Shown here: positions 1 through 7,305 of the stretch, piece by piece | Layout: the number at the start of each line of letters is the position of its first letter | Position numbering within the stretch: position 1 is the first letter of the stretch | From: an uncultured Hormoscilla sp. | Lineage (GTDB): Bacteria > Cyanobacteriota > Cyanobacteriia > Cyanobacteriales > Desertifilaceae | DNA: 64,000 nt | Assembly: GCA_963921275.4 (NCBI GenBank) | Contig: OZ001293.3 | Span: 6,336,001-6,400,000 of the forward strand | Reading direction: 5' to 3' | The notes under the pieces: model-generated | Database searches by the model: none | What the model was told of the DNA's origin: nothing | Seen by the model: only the letters and a program-made list of their open reading frames with translations | Translations under genes and position numbers: made by a program

Positions 1-380
1 TCCCCTCTGAGTCTCCTAAACTCCTGTATAAACTGTCTTCGGCATCGTCAAATGCCTTTCTCTCCGCTTCTGTGAACTTGCTTTTTGTCATCTTTCTTCC
101 ACCCGCATCTCTTTATCCTCCAGGGTTTCTTCTACCGAACTTGGTTGCATACCTTGGTTCTTTCGCCCCTTACTCCCTTCCGCCGGCACCTACCTTTCAT
201 CTCTATTCTCTACCCCGCTGTCGCCGGTCCCGATCTCCGGGGTCTCCTTACTTATCTTCTCAAACATTTCCCTGCTTGTCAACTCCCCTGCCTAAATTCG
301 GTAATTTTCTCCCTGTTTCCCACCTTCTGCTGGTCCTCTCATTTTGATTTGACTATTTCGTCAACATTGACTATCCCATT
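1..380 (-). pseudogene. Degenerate tandem duplicate of the SDR gene 3' end and its downstream flank
   Basis: 1-95 aligns to ~433-527 and 242-332 aligns to 764-854 (14 differences in 91 nt). The minus strand reads GIVNVDEIVK versus GIVHVDDLVK in the intact gene. Contains stops and an internal deletion; runs off the window edge. Confidence 0.85.
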
Positions 381-519
381 CCTAGCCTGTCCTTTGCTTG
401 GGTTCCGTTCTCGAAATAACCCCAGTGCAGACTCCCTTCTGAGTCCCAAAAACTTCTGTATAGACTGTCTTCGGCATCGTAAAATGCCTCTGTCTCCGCT
501 TCTGTGAACTTGCTTTTTG

Positions 520-1494
520 TCATCTTTGGACAATCTCCATCTCTTTTACTATATCCCGCAATGTTTCTTCTACGCTACGGGGTTGCCAACCCAATTCCTG
601 ACGCGCTTTACTCGCGGACACCCGCACGCACCTGTCATATATATAATGTACTCGCTCCCGACTCAGGGGTGGCTGCCACGATAACAGCTTTCCTATGGGT
701 TCTAGCAGGTTCCCTATTACTCGCACCAATGGTTTTGGTGCCTCTGCCGGTACTGCTATCCCCGTCTCCTTACTCAAGATATCAAACATTTCTCTGGTTG
801 TCAAGTCCCCTGCCGAAATTATGTAATGTTCTCCCTGTTTTCCCCCTTCTGCTGCCAATATCGCAGCCTTGACTAGGTCGTCAACATGAACTATCCCCGT
901 GATCCGATCGCCCCCTGCCCACAGCTTCAACCTCCCTTGCATAAATTGGGCAATTACCGGACCAAAATGGGGGTCACCTGCACCCATAATTCCCGATGGT
1001 AACACGCTTACTACTGGCAAGCCCTGCTGGGCAAATTCATCCACTAACTGTTGCGCCAGATATTTCGTGCGATCGTATGCTGAAGCAAAGTCTTTCTGTT
1101 TCCTGACAAAAGTTTCATTTACCGCCTCTCCTTTCGTGTCCCCAAACACCCCGATCGTGCTACAATAAACCAGCTTCTGCACCCCAGCAGCTTTTGCCAC
1201 TTCTAACACGGCGCGGGTTCCCTCGACATTCACCCGTGCCATTTCGGCAGCATTAACCAACCCTAATTCTACATAAGCTGCCGCGTGAAACACCCAGTCT
1301 ACCGAGGCGATCGCCCCCTTAATTGCTTCCGTGTCAGTAATATCCCCATAAACCAATTGTACCTGATAACCTTGCAAACGCTGTAAATTGCTGGTCTGGC
1401 GGACTAAACCAATTACCTCGTCACCGCGTTTCTCTAACTCTTTGACCAAGTGAGAGCCAGTAAATCCATTTGCTCCAGTTACCAGTACCTTCAT
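520..1494 (-). CDS. NAD-dependent epimerase/dehydratase (extended SDR); candidate ceramide reductase (CerR-like)
   Basis: TGANGFTG Rossmann motif, HAAA, YDRTK (YxxxK); start overlaps the stop of the upstream gene by 4 nt. Confidence 0.9.
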   Translation of the reverse strand: MKVLVTGANGFTGSHLVKELEKRGDEVIGLVRQTSNLQRLQGYQVQLVYGDITDTEAIKGAIASVDWVFHAAAYVELGLVNAAEMARVNVEGTRAVLEVAKAAGVQKLVYCSTIGVFGDTKGEAVNETFVRKQKDFASAYDRTKYLAQQLVDEFAQQGLPVVSVLPSGIMGAGDPHFGPVIAQFMQGRLKLWAGGDRITGIVHVDDLVKAAILAAEGGKQGEHYIISAGDLTTREMFDILSKETGIAVPAEAPKPLVRVIGNLLEPIGKLLSWQPPLSRERVHYIYDRCVRVSASKARQELGWQPRSVEETLRDIVKEMEIVQR

Positions 1495-2615
1495 AAACCC
1501 TTTTCGTAGATGCGATAGGTTTTATATATTTTACCACCTGATGCTTCTATGAGCTTGCGGGAGGCTATATTATCTTCTAAAATCCAGGATAATTCTGCCC
1601 TCTTGTAACGTTTACCCTTTTTGGTGCCCCCTTGCATGCCCAGATAAATTAGGGCCAGGGGCACCATTTTCCGGCGATATTCTGGTAGGGAAGACATGGC
1701 AGGCACTCTTGCTTGGTCGAGCTGGCGACGATACCAGAGAAATTTTAATATGCCCAGCCAGTTTAGCTTCCCATTTACATGTTTCAGGGCCATGTTGTAG
1801 TCTGGTAGCCCCATCCAAAAGCCGACCATTTTACCATTGTCTTCCGCCACCGGAAAAATATCTGGATCCACTAGCTGTTGCAACTCCTGCGCTTCTTCCA
1901 GAAATTCTTCCTCCCTGCGTGGGGTAGAACTCCAGTTCGGGGCAAAGGATGTGGTAAAGAGATGATAGAGACTGCGGCAGTCTTGCTGAAAACCTTCGCC
2001 TTTGGTGCGGATGGGGCGAAAGGTAATGCCAGACTTACAAGCAATGCGATAGCCCTTTTCAAATTTGGGGTCTAGGGGTTTGTCGGTCTGAAAGTCATAG
2101 GCATAGGCATCCTTGGCTTTCTGCCAGCCATCATCACCCATAAATTCTGGATAGTAAGGCGGGTTGTAAGGCATCATCATCATTGGTGGAGAGTCAAAGC
2201 CATCCACCAGGAATAAACAATTGTTGTGAGTTGACAGGTCGATCGGGCCCCGGGCCACCACCATCCCCCGATCGCGCAACCATTGACAAGCTGTTTCTAA
2301 CAGGGCCTTAGCGATCTTGAAATCTTCTACGCATTCAAAAAAACCAAACAGACCTATTTGCTTGCCTTCCCGTTCTATTAGTCGTTGATTAATAGCAGCG
2401 ACTATGCGCCCCAGGGGTTGCCCCCTCTCAAGGGCAATAAATTGTTGTAGTTGACCATATTCAAAGAAGGGGTTGTCAGAGTTAAACTGTTTGGCGACAC
2501 TGCTGCGCAGGGGCGGCACCCAGTTCGGGTCATTTTTATATACCCGAACTGGGACATCCAGAAATAATTCCCGGTCTGCTGGGGTAGTGACAGCTTGGAT
2601 CGTGAAGTCAGTCAT
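1491..2615 (-). CDS. GNAT-fold N-acyltransferase of the YghO / bacterial ceramide synthase (bCerS)-like family
   Basis: DPNWVPPL, GRI, FGFFE, GP..LS, GF..PP.MMPYNPPYY, ELSWILEDN and K.YRIYEK motifs typical of this ~370-aa family. Confidence 0.8.
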   Translation of the reverse strand: MTDFTIQAVTTPADRELFLDVPVRVYKNDPNWVPPLRSSVAKQFNSDNPFFEYGQLQQFIALERGQPLGRIVAAINQRLIEREGKQIGLFGFFECVEDFKIAKALLETACQWLRDRGMVVARGPIDLSTHNNCLFLVDGFDSPPMMMMPYNPPYYPEFMGDDGWQKAKDAYAYDFQTDKPLDPKFEKGYRIACKSGITFRPIRTKGEGFQQDCRSLYHLFTTSFAPNWSSTPRREEEFLEEAQELQQLVDPDIFPVAEDNGKMVGFWMGLPDYNMALKHVNGKLNWLGILKFLWYRRQLDQARVPAMSSLPEYRRKMVPLALIYLGMQGGTKKGKRYKRAELSWILEDNIASRKLIEASGGKIYKTYRIYEKGL

Positions 2616-2642
2616 TTGCTATTAGCTATTGGTTATTGACAA

Positions 2643-3932
2643 TTAGCCAGCAGTAATCATGGTTTCTGGTTTGTATATAGCATCTCGCACTGCCATCATT
2701 GCCTCAATGAGGCGATCCATCTCCTCGCGGGTATGAAGGGCGTTAGCAGTAATGCGCATGCGGGGTTTGGCAATAAACCAGATGGGAGAAATCCAAATTC
2801 CATATTTTTCCAGCATCTGTCTGCCAAATTCTTTCGGATCGAGTTCTGCTGGCATCAGTACTGGAATAACATTAGTTTCGCCAATGGGGTCAAAATCTGC
2901 ATCAATTAGGCACTTACGCAAATAGCGAGCATTTTCCTGGAGGGTCTTCACCCGACCCGGAAACCGGCGCACTTGACGGATACTCTCCAAAGCTGCCGCC
3001 GTGGTCGGCGGTGGCAGAGAAATAGTCCCAATAGAAGTAGGCGAGACATCCAACAAGTAGATCAGTTCGGGCAGGTCAGAACTGATTGCGGCCCCCGCTG
3101 AGGCGGCAAACTTCGAGAAAGTTGTCATGATAATCGGCACCACCCCTGCATCGATGGCATCGGTGGGTAATATGCCAAAATGTTCGTAAATGCCTCTACC
3201 CGTCGCCCCGATCGCCCCGCTAGCATGGGCCTCATCCATCACCAGCACGCTGCCCGGATAATTTTGCATGACATTCAGCATTTCTGGTAAGGGGGCGATA
3301 TCCCCGTCCATCGAGAACACCGCATCGGAAATCACCATTACCCGATCGCCCGGTTTGACATAGCGGCGGAGTTTGCGGGCCAGGTCATTAACATCGCAGT
3401 GACGGTAGGGTTTCACCCGCACCTCCGGAGAGTGACCGAACACCTTGCCAGAACGGGTGCCTGCATTCACCACCGCCGATACGATACAGCCGTGGTTGAG
3501 TACATCGGTAAGTATTAACGTCTCGCGGGTATGCTGAAAACCGGGAACCGGCATAGCCAAGTGACAGAAAGCATCCATCAAGGCTTGCATTGCCATCCAT
3601 GCGTTTAAGAATAGCTGCGTGTGGGGCAGATGTTTAAAGGCTGATATTTCCTCCTCTAACTGTCGGTGCAGGTCAATGCGACCGCTCAAGACCGAGGTGG
3701 AACTATTGGAAGTGCCATACTGGACTATGGCATCTATGGCCGCTTGTTTGACCGCCTCTTCCTGAACTAAACCCAATACATCGTTTGTGCAGAAGGTGAG
3801 AACGCTGCGCCGCTTGCCAGTCTTCGGATCTTCGATCTCAACTATATTCCCCTGCTTGCCATGACAAATATACTTATCGGGATAAAGCCCGACGTTCTGA
3901 AGCTGCTGAACATATTCTTTAACAACTTGCAC
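2643..3932 (-). CDS. PLP-dependent alpha-oxoamine synthase (serine palmitoyltransferase / BioF family)
   Basis: NHGCI, DAVFSMDGD, DEAH, TFSK (PLP lysine), RITANA.HT; GTG start. Confidence 0.9.
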   Translation of the reverse strand: MQVVKEYVQQLQNVGLYPDKYICHGKQGNIVEIEDPKTGKRRSVLTFCTNDVLGLVQEEAVKQAAIDAIVQYGTSNSSTSVLSGRIDLHRQLEEEISAFKHLPHTQLFLNAWMAMQALMDAFCHLAMPVPGFQHTRETLILTDVLNHGCIVSAVVNAGTRSGKVFGHSPEVRVKPYRHCDVNDLARKLRRYVKPGDRVMVISDAVFSMDGDIAPLPEMLNVMQNYPGSVLVMDEAHASGAIGATGRGIYEHFGILPTDAIDAGVVPIIMTTFSKFAASAGAAISSDLPELIYLLDVSPTSIGTISLPPPTTAAALESIRQVRRFPGRVKTLQENARYLRKCLIDADFDPIGETNVIPVLMPAELDPKEFGRQMLEKYGIWISPIWFIAKPRMRITANALHTREEMDRLIEAMMAVRDAIYKPETMITAG

Positions 3933-3974
3933 AAATTTACTCCTCTACAATCCTCACCATTCCCGTTTCACCAG

Positions 3975-5045
3975 TCACCATTCCCGACATGGTACAGTTG
4001 ATTGTTGCATATATTGTTCATACTGTCGGACAATCACCCGCTGCAGGGCAATAATGGCTGGGTTAATTTCTACATAGCGCCGCCTCTTGTTGGCCAGATA
4101 GGTACGCTGTTCGCTTTCGATCATCTGGATATCTTGCTGGAGAAATGGCATGAACAAGAAGCGCCAGACTAGCTTGGAGACTAGGGGTTTGATCGGTCCT
4201 AGCAGCCATTTGGGCAGGCGCAGCTTGAGAAACAGCAGGGAAAAAGACCTGGTTGACCTGGGTCCCACGGGCAGTCGCATCAGATACAGGGAGGATACCT
4301 TCTCAAGAGAAGTGTGATAGTGAGGGTAGTGGTACTCAATGCTGACGGTACGGGTAGTGACCCTAGATCCCGTGGAGGTGATGCCGATAAATTTAGTCAA
4401 CCAACCTTGGTAGGATACCTTATAGTCGGCGTATACTGAGGCTTCTGATTGTTTTAAGTCGATCAGCACCGGGTCGAACCAGCCATTTAAGTTTTTGTGT
4501 AAAAACCCGTGGAAGACATCCATGGTGTTTTCGTTGCAGATGGAAAAATGAGCTTGAAAATGGGCCGGTATTTCCACCATCAACCAGTTGGGGTCATCGT
4601 ACTCTGCTACCTGGGGCAGAACTACCGTCTCTGCGAGGGCGCGATCGCCCGGGAAAACCCAGATGATGTTATATTTTTCCCTCACCGGATAGCTGCGGGC
4701 TTGGGCGCAGGGCAGTTTTTGGTCTTTGGGTAGGTAGGGGATGTTAACACATTCACCATCGCCATTATATTCCCAGCCGTGGTAGGGACACAAGAGGTTT
4801 GCCCCCGACACTTGACCTTTATGTAGGGCGACGCCTTTGTGGGGACAAGCATCCTCTAGGGCGTGGAGTTCGCCGTTGCTGTCCCGGTAAAGGGCGATCG
4901 GCTGTTGCCAAACCACCACTGACATCACCTTACCCGGTTTTAACTGGTGTCCCCAAGCTACGGGATACCAGTAATTGGGGTTGATGCCGACTTCGCGCAC
5001 GTGATTGCTTATTGTCTGGCTTTTCAGGGTTGTAGCCAGTTCCAT
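3975..5045 (-). CDS. Rieske non-heme iron oxygenase alpha subunit
   Basis: CPH...CPYHGW Rieske motif; ENTMDVFH...H mononuclear iron site; QDIQMIESEQ. Confidence 0.92.
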   Translation of the reverse strand: MELATTLKSQTISNHVREVGINPNYWYPVAWGHQLKPGKVMSVVVWQQPIALYRDSNGELHALEDACPHKGVALHKGQVSGANLLCPYHGWEYNGDGECVNIPYLPKDQKLPCAQARSYPVREKYNIIWVFPGDRALAETVVLPQVAEYDDPNWLMVEIPAHFQAHFSICNENTMDVFHGFLHKNLNGWFDPVLIDLKQSEASVYADYKVSYQGWLTKFIGITSTGSRVTTRTVSIEYHYPHYHTSLEKVSSLYLMRLPVGPRSTRSFSLLFLKLRLPKWLLGPIKPLVSKLVWRFLFMPFLQQDIQMIESEQRTYLANKRRRYVEINPAIIALQRVIVRQYEQYMQQSTVPCREW

Positions 5046-5162
5046 CCCAATACTCCTGAATTCAAAATATGGGTTCAAGGTCGGATCGTACCTCAGATCT
5101 TGTCAGTTGCCCAATGAAGTGAGGATCTACATGAAACTTAATGCCATTGATGCCATCATCTA

Positions 5163-6035
5163 GGGTGTGTCATCAATCAAATTGCTTGACAGAAATAGAT
5201 GGATACGGTATGGAGTCCTTATCCAGCAATAACAATCAAGAGGGCATGATATGAGACGCTATGGCTTGCGAGACGACCAGTGGGAACGGATCGAACACCT
5301 TTTACCTGGTAAAGAGGGTGACCCAGGCGCTACAGCCAAGAACAATAGATTATTCGTGTTCTGCCGTGTTATATCGATATCGTGCTGGCATTCCCTGGCG
5401 GGATTTACCGGAGTGTTTTGGGGATTTTCGGGTTGTTCATACCCGCCATACCCGTTGGTCTGAAAAGGGAGTTTGGAAGCAGGTATTCGATGTCTTGGCC
5501 TCAGACGCCGATAACGAATACGCCGCGATTGATGCCACCATCCTGCGTGCCCATCAACGAGCGTGCGGGTGCAAAAAAAAACACCCTCAGATACGTGCGA
5601 AACCCAAGCCATAGGCCGTAGTAAAGGGGGACTATCGACAAAGATTCATGCCACTTGCGATTGCCCAAGGCAATCCCACAGGATTTCATCTTACCCCTGG
5701 CCAAGCCCACGACGGGAAAGGCGCTGACGTGCTATTGGATAAAATCGGTGAGATTGGCGCGCTGCTTGCAGATAAAGCCTATGATGCGGAACAACGTGTG
5801 CTCGAGCGCCTGAAAGAGGCGGATTGGATGGCTGTCATTCCTCCAAAAAGTAACCGCACAGAACACAGAGAATACGATGAAGAAATGTACAAGTGGCGGC
5901 ATCTAATTGAAAATCTATTCCAAAAACTCAAGCAATACAGGGCTCTGGCGACACGCTACGATAAAACGGCTCGCAATTTCTTGGGTGCCATCTACCTCGC
6001 GGCAGCTGTAATATGGCTTAATTGATGACACGCCC
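5163..6035 (+). mobile_element. IS5-family insertion sequence with frameshifted transposase
   Basis: 15-bp terminal IRs GGGTGTGTCATCAAT / ATTGATGACACGCCC (14/15 match) flanked by TA. Transposase pieces [47 protein letters not shown] lie in different frames; A-run at ~5573. Confidence 0.93.
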
Positions 6036-6081: not shown

Positions 6082-7305
6082 ATGCTGACTTTGCACAAAA
6101 CTTTTTGGTCCGTTCGCGTAGGACACGTAGCCCGGTGTGCGCAGCGCAATCGCTTGCGACTGCCAGTGCTACTGGTGGCTGGTTCCCTGACGACGATGGC
6201 GGGGGGTGTGGTGGCCCCAGTGCTACCGGAGGTGATCGGGCAACTCCAGTTCGATCCTGCGGTTGCTGGTAATTTGGTCAGCATACATTGCTTGACGATC
6301 GCCCTGTTCAGCCCGCCCCTAGGCATTTTAGCAGACCGGATCGGTCCCGTGCGAGTGCTAGTGCCTTCCCTGGTGCTATATGCCCTGTTTGGCATGGCCG
6401 GGGCCTGGATCGATAGTTTTGAGCCACTGCTGGCGACGCGGGCCTTGTTAGGGGCTGCCAGTGGGGGGCTAGCGGCGGCGAGTCTGGGGTTGCTGGGGCG
6501 GATGTATGAAGGTCAGGCCCGATCGCGGGTCATGGGCTATGCTACCAGTACTCTGACTATTACGGGGATCCTGTTTCCGGCCCTGGGGGGCTGGGTGGGA
6601 GCTGGCAATTGGCGAATGGCTTTTTTACTCTATGGTTTAGCATTGCCCCTAGCTCTGTTAGCGAGCTGGGTTTTCCCTGCTCATAATAGTATCGTGTGGC
6701 AGCCTTCTGGCAAGTCAGGAACTGAGGGTAATCAGCTGCTGCAAGTCTTGAGACATCCCCAAACTTGGCGGCTATTGCTGAGTGTGGCTTTGACTTCTGT
6801 GGCCATGTATGCTGTGGTCATCTATGCTCCCATTTATCTCAAGCAAACTCTGGGGTTGGGGGCTTTGATGAATGGGATGGTGTTGGCATCCCGGGCTCTG
6901 GGGGCGGCTTTGATCTCTGCTTTTGGGGCCAGACAGTTGGCTTCGCGTTTGGGGCCCAAAAAGGCGATCGAGGTTGGTTTGGTGCTGATGGCTATGACTT
7001 TGGTCAGCATTCCTTTCTTGCATCAACTCCACTGGATCTTAGTTGCTGCTATTAGCTTTGGCGCGGGCTTTGGTATTGCTCTGCCTACTCTCTATAATAG
7101 TTTAGCTGACTGTTCTCCTAAAGAACTGCGATCGAGTGTTTTAGCAGCGGGCACGGGAGCGGGTTTTTTGGGTCAGTTCATCTCTCCGGTTTTGCTGGGC
7201 CCTGTACTGGAACTTGGCGGCATAGAATGTGTGTTTTATGCTGCTGCTTTTGTGGCCCTAACTGCTGGCTTTTTGCTGCGATCGCCTGTTAATATGAAAA
7301 GATAA
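6082..7305 (+). CDS. MFS transporter
   Basis: About 12 hydrophobic segments; G.LADRIG motif A; small GC-rich repeat inserted near the N-terminus (~6110-6153). Confidence 0.9.
   Translation: MLTLHKTFWSVRVGHVARCAQRNRLRLPVLLVAGSLTTMAGGVVAPVLPEVIGQLQFDPAVAGNLVSIHCLTIALFSPPLGILADRIGPVRVLVPSLVLYALFGMAGAWIDSFEPLLATRALLGAASGGLAAASLGLLGRMYEGQARSRVMGYATSTLTITGILFPALGGWVGAGNWRMAFLLYGLALPLALLASWVFPAHNSIVWQPSGKSGTEGNQLLQVLRHPQTWRLLLSVALTSVAMYAVVIYAPIYLKQTLGLGALMNGMVLASRALGAALISAFGARQLASRLGPKKAIEVGLVLMAMTLVSIPFLHQLHWILVAAISFGAGFGIALPTLYNSLADCSPKELRSSVLAAGTGAGFLGQFISPVLLGPVLELGGIECVFYAAAFVALTAGFLLRSPVNMKR

Follow-up and report, generated by a model that had tools for sequence, protein, structure and literature searches.

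The window analysed here is a stretch of 64,000 nucleotides from the genome of an uncultured cyanobacterium, Hormoscilla sp. (assembly GCA_963921275.4, contig OZ001293.3, positions 6,336,001 to 6,400,000). Close to its left end, at positions 520..5045, it carries an intact four-gene operon, the centre of a larger set of genes conserved in many cyanobacteria and probably making a ceramide-type lipid, i.e., an N-acyl amino alcohol. Judged from the encoded enzymes, the gene set would work like the bacterial ceramide pathway, with an N-acyltransferase of the bCerS/YghO family of GNAT enzymes but an alpha-oxoamine synthase (AOS) that is not a canonical Spt.

The operon and its co-occurring genes

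The open reading frames (ORFs) of the window give four co-directional minus-strand genes, none of them interrupted. These code for a Rieske non-haem iron oxygenase (3975..5045; 356 aa; Pfam Rieske and VanA_C; motifs CPH, CPYH and DVFHGFLH), an AOS predicted to catalyse the first step (2643..3932; 429 aa from a GTG start; Pfam Aminotran_1_2), a YghO/bCerS-family GNAT N-acyltransferase (1491..2615; 374 aa; a weak Pfam Acetyltransf_1 match and an alignment to YghO) and an extended short-chain dehydrogenase/reductase (SDR), a predicted keto-reductase (520..1494; 324 aa; Pfam Epimerase/3Beta_HSD; motifs GANGFTG, Ser112 and YDRTK). The Rieske and synthase genes are 42 bp apart and the synthase and GNAT genes 27 bp apart, the GNAT and SDR genes overlap by 4 bp, and AGGAG-type sequences lie ahead of the Rieske and synthase starts. 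The coordinates, gaps and Pfam classes thus bear out the initial annotation, which had described four tightly spaced, co-directional and intact genes. A scan for promoters and terminators returned nothing above the level of shuffled sequences; longest ORFs cover 73% of the window.

The synteny search across cyanobacteria that the initial annotation had proposed finds this gene order recurring: among the best 80 of 233 related loci, the Rieske gene stands directly upstream of the synthase gene in 70 of the 75 with room for it, and the full four-gene order is kept in 32 of 61. Since both the adjacency and the order recur, the layout is not a product of chance. The closest named relatives of the synthase are Hormoscilla records (91-98% identity). 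An orthologue at 71% identity or more is found in 24 of 301 sampled genomes of the phylum, the present one included, with the next matches at 38% or less. All 24 carriers belong to the class, which is represented by 128 of the genomes, and they come from 14 families, at 71-80% identity. A GNAT orthologue (at least 55%) marks exactly the same 24 genomes, in six of which it is not adjacent to the AOS.

The other cluster genes were searched in the 24 carriers and in 56 of the 104 class-level non-carriers. The SDR orthologue is present in all 24 carriers and in none of the 56. A 168-aa fatty-acid hydroxylase (at least 65%) is present in 23 carriers and none of the 56, which hold three distant copies (46-53%). 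A GH3 ligase orthologue occurs in 20 and the Rieske orthologue in 18, both again in 0/56, alongside a separate, widespread Rieske paralogue at 31-39%. The carriers are related by kinship, so these counts are not independent and bear no p-value; three families (f1, f4 and f6) include carriers as well as non-carriers, the core genes tracking together within each family. The synthase, GNAT and SDR, which had been proposed to form one linked set, do therefore travel together. The unit is larger than four genes, and the hydroxylase and GH3 genes belong to it though located outside the window. Being found in only 18 of the 24 carriers, the Rieske gene is an accessory of the cluster. We also considered an obligate pairing of Rieske and GH3 and rejected it, as the six Rieske-less genomes all have GH3 and the four GH3-less ones all have Rieske.

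Neighbours were counted in the best 80 of 233 related loci, many of which are cut by contig ends and 33 of which are from Nostocales, and the counts are not to be taken as genome frequencies. After the Rieske gene (72) come GNAT (59), an MFS transporter (50), the SDR (49), the FA_hydroxylase-type hydroxylase (43), GH3 (29), a B12 radical SAM enzyme (23), a desaturase (17), an amidohydrolase and an Mpo1-like protein (15 each), an ABC ATPase (14), a cyclopropane synthase (13), and an OlsC-like hydroxylase and a JmjC cupin (12 each). The MFS gene (Pfam MFS_1), a member of the conserved cluster, is divergent from the operon at 6082..7305 on the plus strand, its true start probably lying later than 6082. 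In the present genome GH3, the cupin and an ABC pair lie 9-15 kb to the left of the window, and the hydroxylase, Mpo1-like and amidohydrolase genes 22-26 kb to its left; no orthologues of the OlsC-like hydroxylase or the cyclopropane synthase were found in it. Contigs from four RNA libraries span the cluster genes of relatives; being long and flat, they may stem from DNA and were not used as evidence.

Family placement and active sites

All four genes stay under the curated NCBIfam cut-off of the enzyme family closest to them, and for the GNAT there is no matching model at all. Its membership of the bCerS/YghO family, which the initial annotation had suggested, is nonetheless firm at the sequence level: it aligns end to end with YghO of E. 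coli BL21 (31% over 374 aa, E 4e-61), which served for the comparison in place of Caulobacter bCerS, and is colinear with six non-cyanobacterial YghO proteins. In E. coli BL21 yghO sits in an annotated spt-acp-epimerase cluster, and it has been grouped with Caulobacter CC_1154 as an N-acyltransferase required for dihydroceramide (PMC9386255). Among 45 plasmid matches, the 30 listed are about equally related to the GNAT (28-35%). Five of the six plasmid loci inspected place the YghO relative with an AOS and an SDR or in another sphingolipid-type context. Those of Rubrobacter (L115:6701-10068) and Streptomyces (L116:6760-11286) have AOS-YghO-SDR trios with Spt-clade synthases in the very order of the operon; in Aureispira and P. 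veronii all three genes are nearby; in Roseomonas lipid genes lie next to the YghO relative, and a different strain of R. mucosa has acp-spt at a distance of ~11 kb. The sixth, from Shinella and the weakest of the matches, has no AOS within 8 kb. A bCerS-type function is thus likely, if not guaranteed, for the GNAT. No solved structure matched it by sequence.

As side observations on this family, the plasmid trios are followed by an LTA-synthase-family gene in Rubrobacter and a condensation-domain gene in Streptomyces. YghO-like genes at 29-35% identity also occur in genomes of the phylum outside the class (G043, G046, G070, G079, G109, G112, G124 and others), where some of the frames run to 580-1,250 aa and may be fusions.

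The synthase scores below every NCBIfam cut-off, including those of the Spt models (178/640 for Bacteroidota Spt, 158/500 and 116/670), and is not an Spt by these scores or by its residues at the SmSPT pocket positions. It also falls short of the BioF model TIGR00858 (224/426). A second AOS match is present in all 24 carrier genomes, and, judged by the models, the synthase is not the BioF of this genome, since a different gene passes that cut-off (429.9 against 426.45). A search of 1.84 billion cluster representatives delineated a small subfamily at 38-62% identity above a background of ~35%, with one member labelled as a Pseudomonadota metagenome-assembled genome (MAG) and the remainder without an organism. 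In the tree the subfamily comes out as a single clade (100/100) with a long stem, separate from cyanobacterial BioF. This tree holds 30 proteins (33 of the 63 in a quick tree were left out, and CFAT, CqsA and SphA are not in it), its reference labels coming from annotation, NCBIfam scores and gene context rather than assays. The model of the synthase (pLDDT 94.4) is closest in structure to SmSPT (Z 48.1, root-mean-square deviation 1.8, 380 aligned), followed by Kbl (Z 46.1) and HemA (Z 45.8). Together, these data point to an uncharacterised AOS subfamily. The phylogeny proposed by the initial annotation sets the synthase apart from BioF in a clade of its own and does not make it a canonical Spt, while tests of its placement reject a link to none of Spt, cyanobacterial BioF and HemA. 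Distant members (35-55% identity) include P0124, P0126, P0127, P0129, P0131, P0132 and P0274, at least one of them from a Pseudomonadota MAG. Among the matches listed, a metagenome scan for their contexts brought up another two clusters of the cyanobacterial type, besides 78 loci of ordinary AOS.

The sole cyanobacterial AOS for which we found a test of Spt activity, Npun_R3567 of Nostoc punctiforme (BioF clade, 394 aa), was negative (PMC8895605). That protein is described as the only AOS of its strain, whereas the subfamily described here (426-430 aa) is a second AOS, ~30% identical to cyanobacterial BioF. A precedent is the sulfonolipid pathway of cysteate fatty acyltransferase (CFAT/CapB/SulA), an Spt-related AOS with its own clade and a remodelled pocket, which uses another amino acid to make a sphingolipid-like lipid (PMC13692747). 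The synthase is only weakly similar to CFAT (E 1.7e-28, Z 41.6), and no cysteate synthase family is among the recurrent neighbours of the related loci.

His147, Asp233, His236, Thr271, Lys274 and Arg393 are invariant in all 224 orthologue sequences, a partly redundant and related set, and because of this invariance the synthase should be an active enzyme. In contrast, the positions that surround the substrate in SmSPT (PMC10196870) are remodelled, by a comparison drawn from alignment rather than from model coordinates: Tyr54 is replaced by Val52, Gly80 by Ser78, Ser81 by Thr79, Phe83 by Val81 and Phe272 by Gly. Among the counts printed, none of the 224 sequences has the SmSPT residue at Tyr54, Gly80, Ser81 or Phe83, whereas of 68 background AOS 67 keep the Tyr and 66 have an aromatic residue at the Phe272 position. 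Residue 79 aligns over equal spans with Ser81 of SmSPT and position 83 of R. capsulatus 5-aminolevulinate synthase (ALAS), where Thr83 directs amino-acid specificity (PMC4525017). It is Cys in 147 of the orthologue sequences, Thr in 71 and Ala in 6, against Ser in 48 of the 68 background AOS; among the references it is Ser in all Spt and BioF proteins, Thr in HemA and Val in Kbl. With regard to the glycine-using AOS, the synthase thus shares the Thr of the ALAS-83 position, and its Ser78 and Cys48 are as in E. coli Kbl. However, it groups with neither HemA nor Kbl in the best tree and scores far below their cut-offs, and Cys48 is not diagnostic, being present in 25 of the 68 background AOS.

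Since the Ser81/Thr83 position is Cys, Thr or Ala in all 224 sequences, the pocket leans from serine towards glycine or alanine, which is a lean and not a result. On this basis glycine would be our foremost candidate substrate, though short of probable, with serine a somewhat weaker candidate, alanine weaker again and any other amino acid unlikely. The initial annotation had seen non-canonical motifs in the synthase, FCTNDVLGL and NHGCI, and suggested that serine may not be its substrate. Both motifs are present and the remodelled pocket agrees with the suggestion, but NHGCI retains the catalytic His and is not a telling change.

The SDR retains the NAD(P) and YxxxK motifs of extended SDRs. 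It shares 22% identity with the E. coli counterpart of CerR and 22-32% with five SDRs of Spt-type clusters (pairwise scores). The extended-SDR motifs and the co-occurrence with the synthase fit the earlier view of it as a CerR-type reductase, but by sequence its orthology to CerR is not clear. Among solved structures its nearest relative is 3wj7 (E 2.8e-39), which we take to be a Gluconobacter reductase of aliphatic aldehydes.

A predicted route to a ceramide-type lipid and its alternatives

bCerS and CerR (Caulobacter accessions A0A0H3C8X0 and A0A0H3C8X7, respectively) were reportedly defined by Stankeviciute et al. in 2022. The Spt-bCerS-CerR pathway (CC_1162, CC_1154 and CC_1164 in Caulobacter; spt, yghO and ECD_02852 in E. 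coli BL21) has the same three enzyme classes as the operon, and the order synthase-GNAT-SDR is that of the Rubrobacter and Streptomyces plasmids. The differences are a synthase that has a remodelled pocket and stands apart from the Spt clade in the best tree, an SDR with 22% identity to its E. coli counterpart, the lack of a recurrent dedicated acyl carrier protein (ACP) or AasR, and the addition of GH3, the Rieske enzyme and the small hydroxylase. Proximity of AOS, bCerS and CerR has been used as a marker of Spt-like enzymes (PMC11334938).

The gene identities, their integrity, co-occurrence and active-site residues are observations; each reaction below, and the product, is a prediction built upon them, in the step order of the Caulobacter ceramide pathway. 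In the first step, the synthase would condense a fatty acyl thioester with a small amino acid. N-acylation of the resulting amino-ketone would fall to the YghO-type GNAT, and ketone reduction by the SDR would then yield an N-acyl amino alcohol, to be modified later by oxygenases. With glycine or alanine as the substrate, a headless 1-deoxy(methyl) ceramide would result. Since the conserved neighbours include neither a recurrent ACP nor a recurrent AasR/FadD family, the acyl donor is probably a housekeeping acyl-ACP. Hydroxylation of a chain by the small histidine-box hydroxylase would be a near-core step, and the Rieske, JmjC, OlsC-like, desaturase, radical SAM and cyclopropane synthase enzymes would serve lineage-specific tailoring. 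GH3, whose bacterial members can form N-acyl amino acids (PMC12493201), might make a further amide or activate a fatty acid, and export of the product would rely on the MFS and DevC-like ABC transporters. More tentatively, about a fifth of the sampled cyanobacteria may make headless ceramides from glycine or alanine by means of a new AOS subfamily recruited to a bCerS-type enzyme independently of Spt, with oxygenases decorating the product, a proposal that we consider possible but doubtful. In the alanine case, the SdmA-like Rieske enzyme could hydroxylate the C1 methyl and thereby furnish a true ceramide without serine.

Several observations weigh against a ceramide-type product. In the best tree the Spt clade (99/97) does not include the synthase, which scores higher on bioF (224) than on Bacteroidota Spt (178). 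Of three placements put to approximately unbiased (AU) tests, next to Spt (p 0.104), cyanobacterial BioF (0.165) or HemA (0.168), none is rejected. The majority residue at position 79, Cys (147/224), is serine-sized, which makes the hint of glycine a weak one, and six of eight distant subfamily members have Ser there. The acyl-wall residues Tyr27, Phe83 and Phe272 of SmSPT (PMC10196870) are Asp, Val and Gly in the synthase, and a long straight chain is therefore not assured. The scores of the SDR to the SDRs of Spt clusters are mostly lower than those among the latter. Finally, as the Shinella case illustrates, ceramide synthesis does not follow from YghO homology alone.

In an alternative that we regard as unlikely, the same three reactions would use a short, branched or cyclic acyl donor to make a small secondary metabolite or signal rather than a membrane lipid, with the oxygenases, GH3 and transporters seeing to its completion and export. 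The patchy occurrence of the cluster (24 carriers in the 128 genomes sampled from the class), the many tailoring genes alongside MFS and ABC transporters, and the remodelled acyl side of the synthase would all suit such a product, and AOS with other products, namely CqsA and Alb29, are among its structural matches. However, the partners of YghO are mostly sphingolipid-type where their context was seen, the desaturase, cyclopropane synthase and OlsC-like hydroxylase among the accessory genes are membrane-lipid enzymes, and 71-80% identity across 14 families with survival of the genes when dispersed resembles a housekeeping lipid route.

A second alternative, which we hold to be improbable, posits two parallel aminolipid routes: GH3 would form an N-acyl amino acid in the manner of OlsH, on which the GNAT or hydroxylases act, while the synthase feeds another branch. 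OlsH consumes ATP and free fatty acid in forming N-acyl ornithine (PMC12493201), GH3 matches it weakly (95 bits against 620) and follows the carriers (20/24 against 0/56), and an OlsC-like hydroxylase occurs in 12 of 80 loci. On the other hand, the GNAT and SDR track the synthase in 24 of 24 carriers, whereas GH3 was not found in four, three of which are fragmented assemblies of 130-350 contigs. Further, an AOS requires a free amine and so cannot directly follow GH3.

There is very little likelihood that the Rieske enzyme and the SDR form a triterpenoid demethylase pair like SdmA/SdmB, unrelated to the two genes between them. The sterol C-4 demethylase SdmA is the nearest curated family for the Rieske enzyme, and SdmB is the second nearest for the SDR after HpnA (216/368); SdmA oxidises a lipid methyl group and a Calothrix SdmAB pair is active (PMC10202945). 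Yet the scores (238 bits for SdmA and 159 for SdmB, each with a cut-off of 600) are far too low, there is no fixed link between the two genes, the SDR following the synthase in all 24 carriers and persisting in the six Rieske-less ones, and no squalene/oxidosqualene cyclase domain (PF13243) was found in the 96.7% complete genome. Since no cyclase was found, the Rieske enzyme would more likely hydroxylate a chain or methyl of an aminolipid than a triterpenoid. A second SdmA-like Rieske group (31-39% identity) is seen in many cyanobacteria without the cluster, and had no match in this genome at the threshold used. Least probable of all is that the synthase serves biotin synthesis as a second BioF: although bioF gives the top NCBIfam score and the AU test permits grouping with cyanobacterial BioF, that score is half of the cut-off, which a separate gene passes, no bio genes recur nearby, and the family-typical equivalents of Tyr54, Arg82 and Phe272 are replaced.

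Local insertions and the wider context

The surroundings of the operon have been disturbed by insertion and duplication. Between the Rieske and MFS genes, ~165 bp apart in the closest relatives, lie two short plus-strand ORFs (5261..6025), which we assume to be an IS5-type transposase and place outside the pathway; the contig of a relative skips 5159-6035. Such an element in a divergent intergenic region may affect expression of the operon. On the other side, a tandem duplication of ~430 bp (window 1-897) combines the SDR 3' end with the 5' end of a methyltransferase gene, its copies being 75-78% identical. By this self-match, a broken minus-strand S-adenosylmethionine methyltransferase gene (1..523) contains, in degenerate form, a copy of the 3' end of the SDR gene along with its own 5' end; its first copy has 42 codons and its second is split by a stop. 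It is intact (465 aa) in relatives, occurring in 3 of the 80 loci, those of the closest relatives only. Beyond the operon on the same strand (L001:8714-14091) follow genes for a methyltransferase, an aminotransferase, a second methyltransferase fragment, a 2-hydroxyacid dehydrogenase and CmcI-like proteins. As none of these except the first methyltransferase was found in the 80 related loci, this run is probably an unrelated insertion.

Outside the window, a group II intron of 2,382 nt with a 588-aa reverse transcriptase/maturase ORF splits the fatty-acid hydroxylase gene of the cluster (L113:5511-8393, i.e., genome 6311511-6314393). Its boundaries are GTGCG...AAC and it matches Rfam RF00029. 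Removing the intron restores the 168-codon frame, and the idea that the hydroxylase is broken in this genome was rejected, the gene being split by the intron. Between the hydroxylase and GH3 genes (L113:9424-13833), this genome of a sponge-associated lineage also encodes a 1,469-aa protein, presumably with leucine-rich and cadherin-like repeats.

Moorea and Scytonema julianum are reported ceramide producers. Two cyanobacterial ceramides have been isolated, while N. punctiforme is without sphingolipids and its single BioF-type AOS is inactive (PMC8895605). Our full-text literature search found no description of the present cluster within its coverage, which took in neither most subscription journals nor the 2022 bCerS/CerR paper, whose supplementary genome list may include cyanobacteria; the excerpts of PMC11278827 and bioRxiv 2023.05.01.538943 hold nothing on it. 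According to Belton et al., studies of sphingolipid biosynthesis in a cyanobacterium were lacking, and tests of other cyanobacterial AOS homologues were called for (PMC8895605). The cluster names candidates for that question, namely a second AOS with an acyltransferase and a reductase, and makes it directly testable, since the carriers include the culturable strains Spirulina subsalsa FACHB-351, Nostoc sp. FACHB-152 and Calothrix parasitica NIES-267. The substrate of the AOS subfamily defined here may widen the known chemistry of the family, as happened with CFAT. Should the lipid prove real, it would bear on the biology of the cyanobacterial envelope and on the sources of environmental 1-deoxyceramides, bacterial forms of which are abundant (PMC11334938). 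If the glycine or alanine reading is true, this would be the first defined sphingolipid-type pathway of cyanobacteria, and a candidate source of 1-deoxy amino-alcohol lipids in hosts with cyanobacterial symbionts.

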